Positions 959 through 17,836 of a DNA stretch of 32,000 bases are shown piece by piece. Source of the DNA: Microcystis aeruginosa NIES-843 (GTDB lineage: Bacteria > Cyanobacteriota > Cyanobacteriia > Cyanobacteriales > Microcystaceae); the NCBI RefSeq assembly GCF_000010625.1, contig NC_010296.1:4500001-4532000 (forward strand). Direction: 5' to 3'. A program made the translations under genes and the position numbers. The notes beneath the pieces are model-generated. The model did not search any database. It was not told the DNA's origin and saw nothing but the letters and a program-made list of their open reading frames with translations. Positions within the stretch are counted from its first letter, which is position 1. Each line of letters starts with the position of its first letter.

Positions 959-1900
959 TCACTGAAGCTGTATTTCCCGATAAGCTTGATAAACGCCGCG
1001 CACGTTGTACCAATTGAGAAAAATGCGGGCAATTTCTAGGGCTAATTGCGGTTTACCTCGATCGATCAACCATTGTAACAGAGGGGAGAGGCTGCGTTCA
1101 TTCAGGGTTCCCCCTAGGGAAAGTAAACCCCACAACAGTCGATGAATCCAAGTCATTTGAATCATCATCCGCACTTCCCAGGTGGGATGTTTTTGATAAA
1201 AAAGCACTCCCATTCGTCCTCGTTGAATTTCCTTATCGATGAGATTGGGAATTTGAGCGAGATTAAAGGGGGGATGCCAATGATAACCGACGGCTTCAGG
1301 ACATTTGATTAATTTTAGTCCTAATTGCTTCAATCTCACCCCTAATTCCAAATCTTCCCAACCGTAGAGTTGAAACTGGGTATCAAATAATCCCGCCGCT
1401 AATAACCATTTTTTAGCGATCGCCACGTTGCCCGTGGCAAAATAGGCGGCGGAGAAATCGGTGATTTTATAGGGTTCACTGGTGGGATGCTCGAAGTTAC
1501 AGGTATTAATGACACTGCCGTAGGTAAATAAGCGATCGCTGCTGAGACTTGCTGCCCCGGCGGTTAAAGCGTCGGCGTGGGCTTGCAAAAAATTTTCTGT
1601 CACTACCAGATCGCTATCGATAAAAATAATCGTATCACCACTAGCTTTTTCTACCCCCAGATTCCTAGCGAGCGCCGGTCCGCCGTGATCCTGTTGCCAC
1701 AGTTGCAGATGGGGTAAATTAGCCTTTTGACTTTCTAGCCAAGCGATCGTCGCATCGGTAGAGCCATCATCGACAAGGACTATTTCGTAGTTTTCCACCT
1801 TATTATCGGTTAAACGCTGATTTTCTAGGGCTAGTAAACATTTTTTTAAAATTGCTTGGCGATTGTAGGTAGGGATGACAACACTGATCAGCACGGGCAT
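959..1900 (-). CDS. Family 2 glycosyltransferase
   Basis: 313-aa ORF. The N-terminal VVIPTYNR...VLVDDGSTD...IFIDSDL pattern is typical of the GT-A fold of GT2 enzymes. Confidence 0.85.
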   Translation of the reverse strand: MPVLISVVIPTYNRQAILKKCLLALENQRLTDNKVENYEIVLVDDGSTDATIAWLESQKANLPHLQLWQQDHGGPALARNLGVEKASGDTIIFIDSDLVVTENFLQAHADALTAGAASLSSDRLFTYGSVINTCNFEHPTSEPYKITDFSAAYFATGNVAIAKKWLLAAGLFDTQFQLYGWEDLELGVRLKQLGLKLIKCPEAVGYHWHPPFNLAQIPNLIDKEIQRGRMGVLFYQKHPTWEVRMMIQMTWIHRLLWGLLSLGGTLNERSLSPLLQWLIDRGKPQLALEIARIFLNWYNVRGVYQAYREIQLQ

Positions 1901-2027: not shown

Positions 2028-2061
2028 TATTTTTATTTATTCTCCCCATCTCCCCACACAC

Positions 2062-2846
2062 GTTACAGTAGAGCAGGAAGTCGCCTTCCCACCCCCTGCT
2101 TCAAAACCGGACTTACGACTTTCGCCGTATCCGGCTCCTGAGTAACTAGGCTACTGTCATTAGTAGAATAATAATGGGAATTATTATTTCCTTGTCTATT
2201 CAACCCTCTTGGCTGTATCCCCACCAGACAAGATTGTTGGTTTTAGGGCGTATATGACCGTTGATTGTTGCTTAGACTTCCTAGTTACCCGTCCTTTGTC
2301 AGCATATCTTTGATATTACTCAAAGCCTTGGCTTTTAAGGACATCCTCTCCCTCTATTGACTTGCGGATGGTTTCCTACTGCCCCGAACGGGCAGAGTCA
2401 ATCAGGGTTACTTCGTTCCCTATAACCATTGGTTGAACCCTTAGGATGATACTGTCCACAACAGAGTAACGGGAATGCCTTACTGATAGTGGTATGAGCT
2501 ATCAGCCCCAACTCTGTTAACTTTTGTTTCGAGCCTGTCAGCCTTTTGGCTCGTGGGTGTTGACGATGGTTAATTCGTATCTTCGCCCCAGGGCTATCCA
2601 TAGGTTCTGGCTCAACGGGTTTCTGATTTAGGCTATCAGATACCGCTTTTTTTTCCTCGCTCACTACCTCAGATGTACCAAGTCTAAAGCAGCAGGAAAT
2701 GCCGTCACTCTAGGCATCTAGAGGACAGGACTAAGGTTATTACTAACCCGCACCTGTAGGGTTATAAAGTTATCAAGGTACTACATTTACCAAGCGGCTA
2801 ATCCTCTAAACGTCTTACTGTCTAGTTTCTAGCCAACGAATCGCAC
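2062..2846 (-). mobile_element. ORF-less group II intron (no reverse transcriptase/maturase)
   Basis: On the minus strand the 5' end reads GTGCG (2846-2842). A canonical domain V lies at 2137-2104. A domain VI-like helix follows (GGAAG-GCGA-CTTCC inside AGCA/TGCT), with an unpaired A 7 nt before a terminal ..AAC near 2062. The domain IV position is a short AT hairpin. The only ORF inside (88 aa) has no RT motifs. Confidence 0.75.
2104..2137 (-). ncRNA. Group II intron domain V (catalytic hairpin)
   Basis: Minus strand reads GAGCCGGATACGGCGAAAGTCGTAAGTCCGGTTT. It has the AGC triad paired to GUU with a G-U wobble, a 2-nt AA bulge on the 3' strand, a GAAA tetraloop, and is 34 nt long. This matches the conserved DV architecture. 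Confidence 0.85.
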
Positions 2847-3080
2847 CACACCCTACACCCTACACCCCACACCCTACACCCCACACCCTACACCCTACAC
2901 CCCACACACCACACCCTACACCCTACACCCCACACCCCACCACCCCATCTCCCCATTTCCCTATCTCCCCATTTCCCCATTTCCCCATCTCCCCACACCC
3001 CACACCCCACACCCCACACCCCACACCCCACACCCCACACCCCATAACCCACACCCCATCTCCCCATCTCCCCACACCCT
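2847..3080. repeat. C-rich strand of a (GGGGTGT/GGGTGTA/GGGGAGAT)n microsatellite-like array; a short continuation lies at 2036-2061 on the other side of the intron
   Basis: Direct reading: ccacaccctacaccctacaccccacaccc...ccccatctccccatttcccc...ccccacaccccacacc. Confidence 0.9.
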
Positions 3081-4639: not shown

Positions 4640-4900
4640 GGACAGGGATTATAATGCCCTTAGCCTAGCGTAGCAAGGGATAATTGTCACTAACCCCGCC
4701 CTAAAAGCGACGGAGCTTGCCTAGACCAATTTAGGCGACGCAAGTAGAGACTACCGCATCGAGACACAATCTGGCACAGACCTCCGAATACTTCCCTAGT
4801 TCGGATTCCCTCTCGGCTTTATTGGTAAAGCGTTGTTAGACAAGACATCTTGATTGTGTTGCGGAAAGGGACTTTAACTTTACTCTTAAGGATTATCTCC
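4640..4900 (+). ncRNA. Candidate omega-RNA (HEARO-type) of the downstream IsrB; boundaries approximate
   Basis: Non-coding stretch directly 5' of isrB in the same orientation. Nested hairpin at 4716-4744 (CTTGCCTA...TAGGC..GCAAG). Hairpin at 4784-4804 (CCGAA...TTCGG). Perfect 8-nt long-range complement between 4764-4771 (ACACAATC) and 4852-4859 (GATTGTGT). IscB/IsrB omega-RNAs are known to lie in the 5' UTR and overlap the ORF start. Confidence 0.55.
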
Positions 4901-5998
4901 ATGGCAAGAGTTCCTGTTATCTCAAAAGACGGAAAGTCGTTGATGCCCACTAAACCCAGTCGGGCCAGACGGTGGATTAAAGAAGGAAAAGCTATCGGTA
5001 AATTCAACGACTTAGGTATTTTCTATGTCCAGCTAATCGATGAACCTTCCGATAGTAAAACCCAACCGATTGCCATTGGTATTGACCCGGGTCAATTATT
5101 CTCTGGAATTGGCGTTCAATCCTCTCTTTTTACTCTTTGGAAGGCTCACTTAGAACTTCCTTTTAAACGAGTAAAAGAGCGCATGGACAATAGACGGTTA
5201 ATGCGAAGAGGACGTAGAAAAAGACGGATTAACCGCCAACTTTCTTTTAATCTAAGAGCGCATCGACAACAACGATTCTCAAATAGAAAACAAGGAAAAT
5301 TAGCTCCCTCAATCAGAGCTAATCGTCAACTTGAACTTCGCGTCGTTTCCGAACTAACCAAAATCTATCCAATTACTGACATTTACTTTGAGTATGTCAA
5401 AGCCGATGTTGATTTAACTTCCGGTAGAAAAGGAGCTAAGTCTGGAAAAGGTTTCTCGTCGGTTATGGTCGGACAGAAATGGGCAATTGAGCAACTGTCT
5501 CAATTGGCAACAGTCCATACTCGCTTTGGTTGGCAAACCTCTAATCTCAGAAAATATTTGGGACTAGAAAAGTCCAAAAATAAAGCAGAACAATCACCAG
5601 AAAGCCATGCTAACGATGGCATTGCTCTTGCCTGTTTTCAATTTTTAGATTATTGGCCATTCCACAATTATAATGGACATGGATATGATTGGAAGGGTTC
5701 TGTTAAAGTAACAAACGCTCCCTTTGCTGTCATCAAACGTCCTCCTATTAGTCGTCGTCAACTTCACCTGATGGTTTTTTCTAAAGGTGGTAAACGACGT
5801 AAATATGGTGGCTCTACCACAAGACATGGGTTCCGTAAAGGAGATTTAGTTTCTTCTCCCAAAGGAATTGGTTATATTAGTGGAGATACCGAAAAACAGC
5901 TATCTGTAAGCGATACCAATGGTCAACGATTGGGACAGATAGCTGTTAGCAAGATTCAGTTAATTCGTCGTTCTAACGGTTTAATTGTTTCTCGCTAA
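4901..5998 (+). CDS. isrB: IsrB-type OMEGA RNA-guided nickase (IscB homologue lacking the HNH domain; 'RRXRR' protein)
   Basis: Track ORF is 4850-5998; the likely start is ATG 4901 (MARVPVISKDGKSLMPTKPSRARRWIKEGKA = PLMP-type N-terminal domain). RuvC-I is IAIGIDPG. Arg-rich bridge helix is RRLMRRGRRKRRINRQ. RuvC-II is IYFEYVK. RuvC-III is SHANDGIALA. There is no CxxC/HNH insert between RuvC-II and RuvC-III. The C-terminal GFRKGDLV..GYISG region looks SH3-like, consistent with a TAM-interaction domain. Confidence 0.85.
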   Translation: MARVPVISKDGKSLMPTKPSRARRWIKEGKAIGKFNDLGIFYVQLIDEPSDSKTQPIAIGIDPGQLFSGIGVQSSLFTLWKAHLELPFKRVKERMDNRRLMRRGRRKRRINRQLSFNLRAHRQQRFSNRKQGKLAPSIRANRQLELRVVSELTKIYPITDIYFEYVKADVDLTSGRKGAKSGKGFSSVMVGQKWAIEQLSQLATVHTRFGWQTSNLRKYLGLEKSKNKAEQSPESHANDGIALACFQFLDYWPFHNYNGHGYDWKGSVKVTNAPFAVIKRPPISRRQLHLMVFSKGGKRRKYGGSTTRHGFRKGDLVSSPKGIGYISGDTEKQLSVSDTNGQRLGQIAVSKIQLIRRSNGLIVSR

Positions 5999-6056: not shown

Positions 6057-7784
6057 ATGACCGGACTAAGTATCGATCGCCAGAAAAAAAAGCATAAACA
6101 GGGCCAAACAAAAGCTGATAGTCCCCCGCTTAACATCAAAGAGAAACTTGCCCTCAAAAAAGAAGAAAGGCAAAAGAAACAAAAATTAACGGGGTTAATT
6201 GTTTTTGCCATTTGTGTAGCAATTTTGCTCGGATTCCCCCTCAGCTTATTATTTGATGCCAACATAGGAGCTGCAGTAAGTTTAGCCTTAATTTTAGTAG
6301 TTTTCTCCTTTAGCTATCCTCGCATGGCTCTTTGGGCATTTATTATCTATGTCCCCTTCACTGGCACTATTATCTATTGGTTGGGAGGTAGTCCAATCCT
6401 CCAGCTTAGTAAAGATATCTTTTATCTACCCGCTTTAATCGCCTTAGTTTTAGAATGTCGAAAAAAGCAATTACCGATTATTGTCCCCAAACAATTAGGT
6501 ACAACCCTATTATTAATCTTTGTTTTCTGTGTAGTTTGTCTATTAGCCGTCAATTTACAGAGACAATTTCTGCCTACTTGTGCATCTGTAGAAGGACTGA
6601 GAGTTTTCAGCAACGGCTTTTTGTTTCGGGTTCCCTGTCGGGAAAGTGAGCCTTTTCTGCAAGGAATATTAGGATTTAAAGTTTTGCTGGGTTATGTCCC
6701 CTTGATCTTCTGCACTTATTACTTAATCAAAGACAAACCGACCCTATTATTTTTTGGTCGTCTTTTAGTGACTTTAGCGATTATTTGTTGTGTTCTAGGA
6801 CTAATGCAATACTGGATGCTGAAAACCGGTCGTTGTGTAGGAACTAGAGGCCTTGTATCTGAGGCACTATTCAAAGCCAACTTAGAGGCAAGGTGTTTGA
6901 TTGGTGGGGCGTTAGTGTATAGTCCGGAAGTAAATATGATCCGCCTACCGGGTACCTTTGTTTCTCCCTGGCACTGGGCTTGGTTTTTGGTCTCTAGTGC
7001 CGTAGTTTGTTATGCCAGTGCCTTTAGTGAAATTTCCCAAAAATGGCGACTAGCAGCCCTAGTAGGTTTAACCCTAGTTTTTATTAATGCAGTGGTCTCC
7101 GGGCAAAGATTAGCTTTCTTTGCTGTACCGATGATTATTGGTCTGATGACGATTATTACGGGACAAATCGCTAACTTAAAACGATTTTTGCCGATCATTT
7201 TTGCCTCGGCTTTACTTCTAGCTATCGGTTTTTCTTTCCTTAACCCGGATTTTGTCCAACAACGCTACGATAGTGCCATCAGCCGTTGGCAAAGCAGTCC
7301 CCCCACCGCTTTTCTTCAAGAACAGTTGGATTTTGCTATCCGTAATCAGGGCGGTATTTTAGGTCGTGGACTTGGTGTGGCCACGTCTGCTGCTAGGTTT
7401 TTCGGTGATATTTCCTTTGTGGAAACCTATCATAGTAAAGTTTTATTCGAGTTGGGATACATTGGTTTTGCCTTGTACATGATATTCATGACCCATCTAG
7501 TTTATCTGGCCTTCCGCACCTATCGTTCCCTCAAAGATCCGACTCTGCGAGGTTTTGCCGGTAGTTATTGGGTTTTGCTGCTCTTTGTTGCCTATCTTCC
7601 CTATTGGTATGCCCTCGATACAGATCCTGTGGGCGTTTATTACTGGATATTTGCGGGCGTAATTTTTAGATTACCCGTGATCGAAAAACAGGAAAAAGAA
7701 GCCAAAATTCTGGCGGGGGAAACCGCCACAAAATCCTCCAAAAAGGGCTTAAATTTTAAACGCAAAGGTGTTTCTTTAGCTTGA
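6057..7784 (+). CDS. O-antigen ligase/polymerase-like polytopic membrane protein (Wzy/WaaL-type)
   Basis: 575-aa ORF with a lysine-rich cytosolic N-terminus followed by about ten or more hydrophobic segments. It sits inside a glycosyltransferase cluster. The family call is by architecture and context only. Confidence 0.6.
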   Translation: MTGLSIDRQKKKHKQGQTKADSPPLNIKEKLALKKEERQKKQKLTGLIVFAICVAILLGFPLSLLFDANIGAAVSLALILVVFSFSYPRMALWAFIIYVPFTGTIIYWLGGSPILQLSKDIFYLPALIALVLECRKKQLPIIVPKQLGTTLLLIFVFCVVCLLAVNLQRQFLPTCASVEGLRVFSNGFLFRVPCRESEPFLQGILGFKVLLGYVPLIFCTYYLIKDKPTLLFFGRLLVTLAIICCVLGLMQYWMLKTGRCVGTRGLVSEALFKANLEARCLIGGALVYSPEVNMIRLPGTFVSPWHWAWFLVSSAVVCYASAFSEISQKWRLAALVGLTLVFINAVVSGQRLAFFAVPMIIGLMTIITGQIANLKRFLPIIFASALLLAIGFSFLNPDFVQQRYDSAISRWQSSPPTAFLQEQLDFAIRNQGGILGRGLGVATSAARFFGDISFVETYHSKVLFELGYIGFALYMIFMTHLVYLAFRTYRSLKDPTLRGFAGSYWVLLLFVAYLPYWYALDTDPVGVYYWIFAGVIFRLPVIEKQEKEAKILAGETATKSSKKGLNFKRKGVSLA

Positions 7785-7789
7785 AATAT

Positions 7790-7897
7790 GGGTGTTGGGT
7801 TTTAGGGTGTTGGGGTTTTAGGGTTTTAGTGGAAATTCCCCCATTCCCCCACTCCCCCACTCCCCCACTTCCCCACTCCCCCACTCCCCCATTCCCT
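7790..7897. repeat. Composite simple repeat: a G-rich half (GGGTGTTGGGTTTTAGGG...) followed by a C-rich half (CCCCCACT/CCCCCATT)n
   Basis: Direct reading. Its translation produces the proline-rich pseudo-N-terminus of track ORF 7781-8896. Confidence 0.9.
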
Positions 7898-8896: not shown

Positions 8897-10062
8897 AAAT
8901 TTTAGTCGCTAGTCATACATATATAGTTGATCTCAACTGTGAGAAACTGCGCGCCCTGACAAGATTAAATCCCAATATTGAAGTTACTATTGTTGTTCCC
9001 CAACGTTGGCAACCGGGAGGAGTCCAAAATAAAATCATTGAAAGTCAACCGAAAATAGCCGACAATTTCTGCGTCATTCCTATCTCTAATTTTAGCCAAA
9101 ATAATCAATCTTTATTAACTTTTGGCACTGATATAATTCCTTTATTGCAAAAATTTAGACCTGATATTATTCAAGTGGAACAGGGTTCTAAATCTCTCGC
9201 TTATGCTCAATTTATTACTCTGAATCGTCTCTTAAATCTACAGGCTAAAAATGTATTTTTTACCTGGTGGAATCTTCCCTATACTCCTAAATTTCCCATC
9301 TCTTGGTTAGAAGCTTATAACCTGAAAAATACCGATGGTTTAATCGCCGGTAATCAGGACGGGGTAGATGTTTTAAAAGAACGGGGTTACAGGGGTAAAT
9401 ACACCGTTTTACCGCAATTAGGAGTGGATGAAGTCCTTTTTTCCCCTGGCAAGCAACCCGATTTAGCCCGATCTTTAGGCATTGAAAACGATGAATTCGT
9501 GATTGGTTTTATCGGTCGTTTTGTGGAAGAAAAAGGCATTCTAACGCTGATTAAAGCTGCATCTAAATTAACAGGTAAGTGGAAATTATTACTGTTAGGT
9601 CGGGGCATCCTGAAAGATAAAATAGTCAGCGAAGCTAGAGCCGTAGGAATAAGCGATCGCTTGATGATAGTGGAAAGTGTTCCCCACGATCAAGTAGTTA
9701 ATTATCTTAACCTGATGAACACTTTAGTTTTGCCTTCAGAAATCACCTATCAGGTCAAAACCTTAACTGCCGTCGGTTGGAAAGAACAATTCGGTCATGT
9801 CTTAATTGAAGCTATGGCCTGTCAGGTTCCTGTTATTGGTTCTGATTCGGGAGAAATCCCCTTTGTTATTGCTGATACGGGTTTAATTTTTCCCGAAAAA
9901 GATGGGGAGGCACTGGCTAAATCTATACAAACTCTCTTAGATAATCCCAGCTTCGCTCAAGAATTAGGCCAGAGGGGTTATCAGAGAGTAATGACCAATT
10001 ATACTAATAAAGCCCTCGCTCAAAAACAATTGGATTTCTATCAACAATTACTCCCTCGGTGA
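8893..10062 (+). CDS. Family 4 (GT-B) glycosyltransferase
   Basis: 389-aa ORF. The C-terminal EQFGHVLIEAMACQVPVIGSDSGEIP matches the E-x7-E motif region of GT4/GT1 enzymes. The ATGA overlap with the upstream GT2 suggests translational coupling. Confidence 0.85.
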   Translation: MKILVASHTYIVDLNCEKLRALTRLNPNIEVTIVVPQRWQPGGVQNKIIESQPKIADNFCVIPISNFSQNNQSLLTFGTDIIPLLQKFRPDIIQVEQGSKSLAYAQFITLNRLLNLQAKNVFFTWWNLPYTPKFPISWLEAYNLKNTDGLIAGNQDGVDVLKERGYRGKYTVLPQLGVDEVLFSPGKQPDLARSLGIENDEFVIGFIGRFVEEKGILTLIKAASKLTGKWKLLLLGRGILKDKIVSEARAVGISDRLMIVESVPHDQVVNYLNLMNTLVLPSEITYQVKTLTAVGWKEQFGHVLIEAMACQVPVIGSDSGEIPFVIADTGLIFPEKDGEALAKSIQTLLDNPSFAQELGQRGYQRVMTNYTNKALAQKQLDFYQQLLPR

Positions 10063-10063
10063 T

Positions 10064-10172
10064 GGGAAGTGGGGTGTGGGGTGTGGGGTGTGGGGTGTGG
10101 GGTGTGGGGAGAAAAAAGCTGATAACTGATAACTGACAACTGATCACTGATAACTGATCACTGATCACTGGT
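10064..10172. repeat. Composite intergenic module: (GGGGTGT)n at 10064-10110, then a (CTGATAA/CTGATCA)n heptad array at 10119-10172
   Basis: Direct reading. Confidence 0.9.
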
Positions 10173-12996: not shown

Positions 12997-13046
12997 CTAG
13001 CAGTTTTGTGTCACGCTTTACCAACTTAGTCTGCGTGAACATAGCG

Positions 13047-13222
13047 GGGTGTGGGGTGTAGGGTGTAGGGTGTAGGGTGTGGGGTGTGGGGTGTAGGGTG
13101 ATGGGGAAATGGGGGTGTGGGGAGAATCAATAAAGGCAGTCTATTGACAACTGCTCACTGATTACCACTGTCCACTGAAAACTCAAATCTGATCACTGAT
13201 CACTGATAACTGATAACTGATG
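13047..13222. repeat. Composite intergenic module: (GGGGTGT/GGGTGTA)n at 13047-13123, then degenerate-to-perfect (CTGATCA/CTGATAA)n heptads at 13149-13222
   Basis: Direct reading. The order and orientation match the module at 10064-10172. Confidence 0.9.
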
Positions 13223-17760: not shown

Positions 17761-17804
17761 CAGTGGCTAAGTAGGGTTTGCTGAAAAAGCTTTTCCTGGG
17801 GGCA

Positions 17805-17836
17805 GGGTGTGGGGTGTGGGGTGTGGGGTGTGGGGT
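17805..17836. repeat. (GGGGTGT)n array
   Basis: Direct reading: gggtgtggggtgtggggtgtggggtgtgggg. Confidence 0.9.

Follow-up and report, generated by a model that had tools for sequence, protein, structure and literature searches.

A Protein-less Group II Intron of Microcystis aeruginosa and a G-rich Heptamer Repeat as its Probable Homing Site

Introduction

How can a ribozyme that encodes no protein come to sit, with its sequence nearly unchanged, in the same short repeat at many different sites? This is the question raised by a locus of the bloom-forming cyanobacterium Microcystis aeruginosa NIES-843, found within the 32,000-nt stretch of its genome that we have analyzed (NC_010296.1, positions 4,500,001 to 4,532,000; the whole stretch is called the window below and coordinates are counted from its first nucleotide). 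There, a long array of the heptamer GGGGTGT, bordered by the gene of a glycosyltransferase (959-1900, minus strand) and by a divergently oriented one for phosphoglucomutase, is interrupted by a group II intron of 785 nt that has no open reading frame (ORF) for a protein of its own. A preliminary description of this DNA had proposed such an intron at 2846-2062 of the minus strand (~785 nt), and this proposal has been borne out by the ends of the element, by the match to the Rfam family RF00029, by empty alleles and by other copies. To that description we add the heptamer array in the flanks, the probable role of this array as homing site and the existence of multiple copies of the element. We propose, with a probability of roughly 0.7, that this is a mobile but non-autonomous group II intron, probably belonging to the chloroplast-like IIB lineage of cyanobacteria, and that it homes on the (GGGGTGT)n repeat of Microcystis.

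Empty and Occupied Sites

On the minus strand of the window the intron starts with GTGCGATTCG at 2846 and ends with ...CTACTGTAAC at 2062. The GUGCG at the 5' end and the AAC at the 3' end (2064-2062) agree with the group II consensus, i.e., 5' GUGYG and 3' AY. Six other Microcystis contigs were found to have both flanking genes and near-identical flanks around an uninterrupted array, with exactly 785 nt absent, so that the boundaries of the intron are fixed without resorting to any model and the insertion is seen to be polymorphic. The lengths of the array at this locus vary among strains, and in one case (L151) the intron is present at the same locus with its insertion point shifted upstream by three repeat units (21 nt). 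A second array of the window, at 13046-13106, is empty here and intron-bearing in another strain (L154). As for the neighborhood, the product of the glycosyltransferase gene was found identical on AP019314.1 (assembly GCA_003945305.1).

Further copies were found by means of an 88-aa chance ORF within the intron (2398-2664, minus strand) that is called as a gene in some assemblies, and by scanning metagenomes for the exact domain V (ten matches). The same intron ends were present in ~20 further copies. A 100% identical 785-nt sequence occupied seven sites, that of the window included, and the remaining copies were 98.6-99.9% identical, with 14 variable alignment columns in total, over ~15 different 5' flanks. 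According to the preliminary description the element would either depend on a trans-acting protein or be a fossil. The first option fits what we found, but a copy that is identical at six other sites, and the presence of which varies from strain to strain, does not look like a fossil. No ORF larger than 88 aa was found inside the intron, and none there resembled a reverse transcriptase (RT). Lacking an RT/maturase ORF, the 785-nt element cannot be an autonomous mobile intron and is non-autonomous at most. Phage records and viral contigs contained no copy, and in plasmid records the matches were partial and to related introns only, among them the Tolypothrix relative described below.

Some of the copies bear the marks of other events. 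The chromosome of strain NIES-102 has at least two intron copies at ~5.06 Mb, arranged in tandem and 21 nt (three units) apart (L138, 5730-8838). In the first of these two, 87 nt bounded by terminal inverted repeats (AAGCTTAGACGCA...TGCGTCTAAGCTT) are inserted at intron nt 171, and an insertion sequence (IS) that encodes a DDE_Tnp_1 transposase lies between the two copies of a 17-nt duplication (intron nt 246-262). Other mobile elements insert into the intron itself. At another locus two copies are placed head to tail with zero exon bases between them (L155, 106-1673; CTGTAAC directly followed by GTGCGATT), and the same locus is represented with a single copy in L157. The double copy may come from a loop in the assembly or else be a genuine tandem, one that falls outside the insertion rule described below.

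Two apparent variants were rejected. The contig L146, with a differing sequence upstream of intron nt 668 and the end of a Lys-rich ORF in it, had been considered as the ORF-containing parent of the family. The first 112 nt of this contig are found again at its opposite end and in L140, always ending ...GGTGAGGATGTCAA, and this recurrence indicates that L146 is an intron copy cut in domain IV by another repeated element. The latter (L146 1-112 and 14618-14729, L140 11069-11180) interrupts domain IV at nt 667/668, ends with ...GGGAATCACCGTCCGTTTACGGCGGTGAGGATGTCAA, has a subterminal hairpin and differs in its neighbors from place to place; it might represent one end of an element of the IS200/IS605 type. 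The second candidate was a group of contigs starting at intron nt 662-676, which are explained by the k-mer length of the assembler.

Structure of the Ribozyme and its Relatives

The Rfam scan of the whole window gave a single match, to RF00029 (domains V-VI), at 2139-2062 of the minus strand. The match covers the full length of the model with 55 bits (the gathering score being 40) and E = 2.3e-08 for the whole window. The fold of the complete 785 nt also stood out from those of shuffled sequences (z = -5.1). The preliminary description had recognized a canonical domain V at 2137-2104, GAGCCGGAUACGGCGAAAGUCGUAAGUCCGGUUU, with its AGC triad, G-U pair, AA bulge and GAAA loop, and the RF00029 match and the fold agree with it. 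The fold likewise supports the domain VI-like helix, with a GCGA loop and an unpaired A, that had been placed after domain V (Table 1). The bulged base, A2069, lies eight nt before the intron's 3' end, and all the other bases in the 3' strand of domain VI are paired.

Domain IV had been described as holding only a short AT hairpin and therefore no maturase or RT. The second part of this statement stands, but the hairpin is just one arm of a 147-nt domain that consists of three (a long imperfect arm, an AT-rich hairpin and a small hairpin) on a perfect 9-bp basal stem. The 5' part of the long arm, GGAAG..AAG..ACAA, is also conserved in the RT-encoding relatives, as far as the site of their start codon. 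This conservation is consistent with a putative retained protein-binding site.

Outside domain V, where the preliminary description had looked to covariance models, the Rfam models for domains I to IV (D1-D4) gave only a partial match (26.7 bits against a threshold of 36, E = 0.005). This counts against the proposed mobile intron, as does one helix of domain I (intron nt 282-283 with 386-387) that has a C-U mismatch and a G-U pair when compared with the family consensus; this weakened helix belongs to the commonest sequence type, the window copy included. The sub-threshold models were replaced by tests of homology and covariation, for which the pool of relatives was provided by a scan of genome contigs in which a degenerate pattern of domain V matched >120 loci from a wide range of phyla and none of Microcystis. 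The closest introns by sequence are one on plasmid NZ_CP064885 of Tolypothrix sp. PCC 7601 (L160, 3501-5926) and several of Hormoscilla (L012, L053, L085, L120 and L122). The first 86 nt of the Microcystis intron are 77% identical to the Tolypothrix plasmid intron, and domains I-III align with it in nhmmer at E = 2e-22, while the introns in Hormoscilla, another Tolypothrix and one Binatia genome align with E values of 1e-14 to 1e-9. Beyond the core the relatives are only ~57-63% identical to the Microcystis intron. An alignment of nine introns yielded a consensus structure of 91 pairs, with 90% of the cells paired and compensatory changes in 60 of the pairs. Controls in which the partners were slid by 1-3 columns had 42-48% of the cells paired and 23-27 compensatory pairs, and none of 500 shuffles attained the observed values of pairing and covariation. 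The closing helix of domain I alone was 98% paired, with compensatory changes in three of its six pairs. Since domains I-III are homologous to those of other introns and their helices covary, we take the 785-nt element to be a group II ribozyme in spite of the sub-threshold D1-D4 scores.

The Tolypothrix plasmid intron has an RT gene (508 aa) and its own domains V-VI. Full-length members of this family of intron-encoded proteins (IEPs) have ~590 aa and contain maturase and HNH domains in addition to the RT; the family carries PF00078, PF08388 and PF01844 and is cyanobacterial. Most of the Hormoscilla relatives are also ORF-less, with sizes of 0.85-1.1 kb, and in one of the Hormoscilla introns (L053) the 5' end is partially duplicated, the start GTGCGAAACGTTCGGGTGTAAACAAG occurring twice at a distance of 38 nt. 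Within the cyanobacterial IEP family (L160 5620-5926; P0036, P0060, P0069 and others) the reading frame runs on through domain V. The segment ...EEPDEVKVSRPVLKTS... of these proteins is encoded by the catalytic hairpin of the ribozyme, and the corresponding frame of the Microcystis intron still gives ...QEPDTAKVVSPVLKQG.... Regarding the subgroup, the relatives attained the gathering score of RF04357, and the Microcystis intron scored 41.7 bits on RF04356, under the 61-bit cut-off.

Exon-binding Sites and Rule of Insertion

Two stretches of the intron are hypervariable among the relatives within conserved surroundings. The first is in the loop of a covarying hairpin and contains CAUACC (2496-2491), complementary to positions -6 to -1 of the 5' exon (GGUGUG). 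The second, ACACCC, belongs to a single-stranded stretch 64 nt upstream of the first (Table 1). Among eight relatives, six have a loop, homologous to the first stretch, that pairs with the last 5-7 nt of their own 5' exon, up to -1 (in the Tolypothrix intron UUCUG pairs with the exon end CAGAA), and in most of the relatives the stretch homologous to the second pairs with 5-9 nt located further upstream in their own exon. Given their hypervariable position and the pairing of the relatives with their own exons, we take CAUACC and ACACCC as the exon-binding sites EBS1 and EBS2, the exon counterparts being the intron-binding sites (IBS) 1 and 2. The preliminary description had pointed to EBS/IBS pairing with the flanks as a mark of a genuine intron, and both sites are complementary to the flanking 5' exon.

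All the readable 5' junctions were ...GGGTGTRGGGTGTR^GTGCG, and the 14 nt common to all the Microcystis insertion sites are the stretch complementary to EBS2 plus EBS1; two sites with A at -1 have one C-A mismatch to EBS1. The two exon-binding sites read two successive repeat units, in registers offset by one base. At every site the intron is oriented along the G-rich strand. The 3' exon opens with G in all copies, mostly as GGGTGT or GGGAGA and more rarely as GTGTGT (the window), GCCCCC, GGGAAG, GGGGGG or GGGTTT. In the window this +1 position (IBS3) is the G at 2061. A search of the alignment columns for an EBS3 covarying with exon +1 gave weak candidates only, e.g., intron C399 (seven Watson-Crick pairs and one wobble out of nine), and these are confounded by relatedness. 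Upstream, the repeat is limited to exactly two units at several sites (L132, L133, L135 and L142); downstream, it is absent apart from 1-3 G at several (L135, L147, L148, L149 and L152). In the window the motif GGGTGTRGGGTGTRG occurs 29 times (13 on the plus and 16 on the minus strand), with one of the occurrences occupied.

Table 1. Coordinates of the intron, its domains and its target within the window (EBS, exon-binding site; IBS, intron-binding site).
Feature	Position	Strand	Basis
Complete ORF-less group II intron, 785 nt (GUGCG...AC)	2062..2846	minus	Whole-intron fold, empty sites, same ends in copies
GUGCG, 5' splice-site consensus	2842..2846	minus	Invariant in 9/9 aligned relatives
Domain I; closing helix UUCGUU/AACGAA (2840-2835 with 2417-2412)	2412..2840	minus	Nine-intron consensus structure
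EBS2 candidate ACACCC (intron nt 287-292)	2555..2560	minus	Hypervariable block; complementary to exon -14..-9 GGGUGU
EBS1 hairpin CUGAUAG-CUCAUACCA-CUAUCAG	2483..2505	minus	Covarying stem, hypervariable loop
Domain II	2350..2406	minus	Consensus structure, helix 15
Domain III	2291..2342	minus	Consensus helices 17-18; 11/12 pairs with compensatory changes
Domain IV, 147 nt, no ORF	2142..2288	minus	Fold, z = -4.8
Domain V, AGC triad, G-U pair, 2-nt AA bulge, GAAA loop	2104..2137	minus	RF00029 and fold
Domain VI, GCGA loop, bulged branch-point A at 2069	2065..2099	minus	RF00029 and fold (z = -6.4)
5' exon target: IBS2 GGGTGT (2860-2855), spacer AG, IBS1 GGTGTG (2852-2847)	2847..2860	minus	Junction reading, EBS complementarity
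Upstream part of (GGGGTGT)n array, ~32 units	2847..3079	minus	Sequence reading, comparison with empty loci
Downstream rest of array, GTGTGTG GGGAGAT GGGGAGA (three variant units)	2041..2061	minus	Sequence reading

Proposed Mobility and Partner Protein

From the structure, the copies and the rule of insertion we infer that the intron splices, that it retrohomes and that a protein acts on it in trans. A copy would be transcribed and the ribozyme would splice as a lariat from the adenosine of domain VI, helped by the maturase/RT of another group II intron in the cell, given that an intron without an ORF must obtain this protein from elsewhere. The RNA-protein particle would then find double-stranded DNA in which two successive units can pair with EBS2 (ACACCC:GGGTGT) and EBS1 (CAUACC:GGTGTG) and in which G is present at +1, after the EBS1-paired stretch. 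The RNA would reverse-splice into the G-rich strand past the R of the second unit and would be copied to DNA. Each array would represent many equivalent and mostly intergenic sites, which would lead to accumulation of copies, re-insertion in the same array and variation among strains. As for possible helpers, seven genes for group II RTs are known in M. aeruginosa NIES-843, of which six are nearly identical to one another and encode an HNH domain (PMC8934634), and the strains NIES-102 and NIES-843 are close relatives with conserved synteny (PMC6930136). In Thermosynechococcus ORF-less introns are mobilized by "driver" IEPs (PMC2882425).

Several results weigh against this proposal. There was no ORF-containing version of the ribozyme among the ten metagenome matches to the exact domain V, and no RT gene either in the window or in ~258 kb of Microcystis loci. 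When the peptide read through domains V-VI was compared with 1.84 billion representative proteins no long protein was found. The sole other Microcystis intron type recovered (L162-L164) has different domains V and VI and different target sites. Finally, the count of distinct sites is approximate, as some of the short metagenome contigs may have been misjoined at the repeat. Other protein searches included the look-up of a 53-aa pseudo-ORF, which had no match, and a search with the Tolypothrix IEP, which gave 8000 matches with no Microcystis name in the 120 of these that were listed. A query with a chimeric HNH tail recovered only fragments of Microcystis IEPs with HNH domains, on a different intron type.

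It might be that an autonomous RT-encoding twin living in Microcystis is the real mobile element and that the 785-nt form is a deletion derivative using the cognate protein of this twin. We consider this unlikely. The ORF-less introns of Thermosynechococcus did arise in this way (PMC2882425), the similarity of domain IV to that of RT-encoding relatives up to the start codon would fit, and the searches were narrow, consisting of an exact 33-mer in one metagenome collection and of cluster representatives only. However, all the full-length copies recovered are ORF-less, the apparent variant L146 turned out to be an interrupted intron, and no long protein with a tail encoded by domain V of the Microcystis intron came up.

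A second alternative is that the intron is no longer retromobile and its copies have been spread by homologous recombination or gene conversion via the flanking heptamers, maybe with transformation between strains. There are heptamers on both sides of most copies and the phase would be kept in such exchanges; the array lengths, different from strain to strain, indicate that the arrays are recombinogenic or slippage-prone, and no partner IEP was found in the searches made. However, the upstream repeat of several insertions is no longer than 14 nt, and the repeat-free downstream flanks GGGAGATTAAAT, GCCCCCCC, GGGAAGGAAACC and GGGTTTAGTT leave no homology on one side. Recombination would not account either for the coincidence of the invariant 14 nt with the complement of EBS2 and EBS1. 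Sites with two units only upstream and sites that are repeat-free downstream point to retrohoming rather than recombination, and we regard the latter as improbable.

A third idea, that the copies multiply passively because the heptamer array is part of a larger dispersed repeat resembling a miniature inverted-repeat transposable element (MITE) that carries the intron along, has in its favor the many arrays with TAGGGTYTGCTGAAAAAGKTTT before and GGGGTTTTACCGATTTTGAGG... after them, but it is very hard to reconcile with the absence of these flanking motifs at at least six sites, with the varying number of units between motif and intron, and with the array of the window locus, known with and without the intron and with the intron at two positions.

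Heptamer Arrays in the Window

Apart from the array that harbors the intron, the window has four further arrays of the GGGGTGT type, all of them intron-free (7790-7896, 10058-10109, 13046-13106 and 17805-17836), and two arrays of CTGATAA (= TAACTGA) at 10119-10170 and 13174-13221. TAACTGA is an intergenic heptamer repeat of Beggiatoaceae that is also present in M. aeruginosa NIES-843 (PMC4679880). The G-rich and the TAACTGA arrays often adjoin each other in one spacer. The sequence TAGGGTYTGCTGAAAAAGKTTT precedes many G-rich arrays (position 17774 of the window, plus strand, and the 5' flanks of L132, L135, L140, L142 and L156), and GGGGTTTTACCGATTTTGAGGGGG...TTTTCAGGGAAAAAGTNCCTGAATTT follows many of them (3' flanks of L134, L140, L154 and L155). 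It seems that the G-rich arrays are parts of a composite repeat that is larger and dispersed. Between heptamer arrays there are also two adjoining ORFs on the plus strand. One of 382 aa (4850-5998) has the Pfam domain RRXRR (PF14239, E = 5e-52), known from nuclease proteins of the HNH type, and the other, of 575 aa (6057-7784), has no Pfam match.

Comparison with Known Systems

The existence of ORF-less bacterial group II introns, their mobilization in trans and the homing of introns into recurrent harmless sequences are already known. The TeI3 introns of Thermosynechococcus elongatus (Mohr et al., 2010; PMC2882425) are, like the Microcystis intron, cyanobacterial and devoid of the domain IV ORF, and they are of IIB type, to which the Microcystis intron probably also belongs. 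In Thermosynechococcus 17 ORF-less introns, derived from one deletion and served by drivers of relaxed specificity, outnumber the ORF-containing introns, and the driver IEPs of TeI3 are those of the TeI4 introns (PMC2882425). Unlike the Microcystis intron, the TeI3 introns retain recognizable remnants of the ORF and have known cognate IEPs in the same genome. The TeI3 families have diverged to different unique targets, including other introns, with no specialization on tandem repeats. The Tolypothrix and Hormoscilla introns share with the Microcystis intron domains I-III, the covarying helices and the positions of EBS1 and EBS2, but they are inserted in unique, non-repeat sequences.

Class C introns home behind terminators or attC sites, and RmInt1 does so in ISRm2011-2. 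Another group II intron, EcKTE56.groEL, is located at the stop codon of groEL (PMC12584367). All of these resemble the Microcystis intron in homing into a recurrent harmless sequence. However, they home on a DNA structure, an insertion sequence or the end of a single gene and encode their own protein, whereas the target of the Microcystis intron is a short tandem-repeat unit read twice, by EBS2 and by EBS1. SART and TRAS of Bombyx are telomere-repeat-specific retrotransposons of the non-long terminal repeat (non-LTR) kind, and MITEs are non-autonomous elements. The former present an analogy in their fixed phase within a G-rich short tandem repeat, and the latter as short non-coding derivatives that borrow the machinery of autonomous elements; the classes of element and their chemistry are unrelated to those of the intron, and no homology is claimed in either case. 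Neither a target of the short tandem-repeat-unit type nor the Microcystis family was described in the literature covered (on Microcystis genomes and mobilome, one large survey of group II introns in prokaryotes, and introns and repeats), a provisional statement given that most subscription journals were outside this coverage.

Implications

It is possible, although we would not call it probable, that this is the first described group II intron lineage homing on a short tandem-repeat unit, and that a protein-less ribozyme has recently swept Microcystis populations with a borrowed, maybe non-cognate RT. If true, the two exon-binding sites would each read one telomere-like G-rich heptamer and every array would be a multi-site landing pad, with 29 candidate landing sites in this 32-kb window alone. 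It would also provide a concrete bacterial case of a group II retroelement tied to G-rich repeats, and if the driver protein is non-cognate, a natural instance of relaxed-specificity trans-mobilization in a bloom-forming organism. ORF-less group II introns are usually seen as decaying relics, and here the ORF-less form appears to be the most successful one, because the target itself is a dispersed repeat.

On the practical side, the intron breaks short-read assemblies at heptamer arrays, its presence or absence can serve as a marker for strain typing, and the EBS/IBS rule predicts the sites of new insertions. The family would be a natural system for studying how introns proliferate without harm to the host, how a foreign or orphan ribozyme is mobilized by a protein made elsewhere, and how retroelements together with simple repeats shape the unstable genome of Microcystis.

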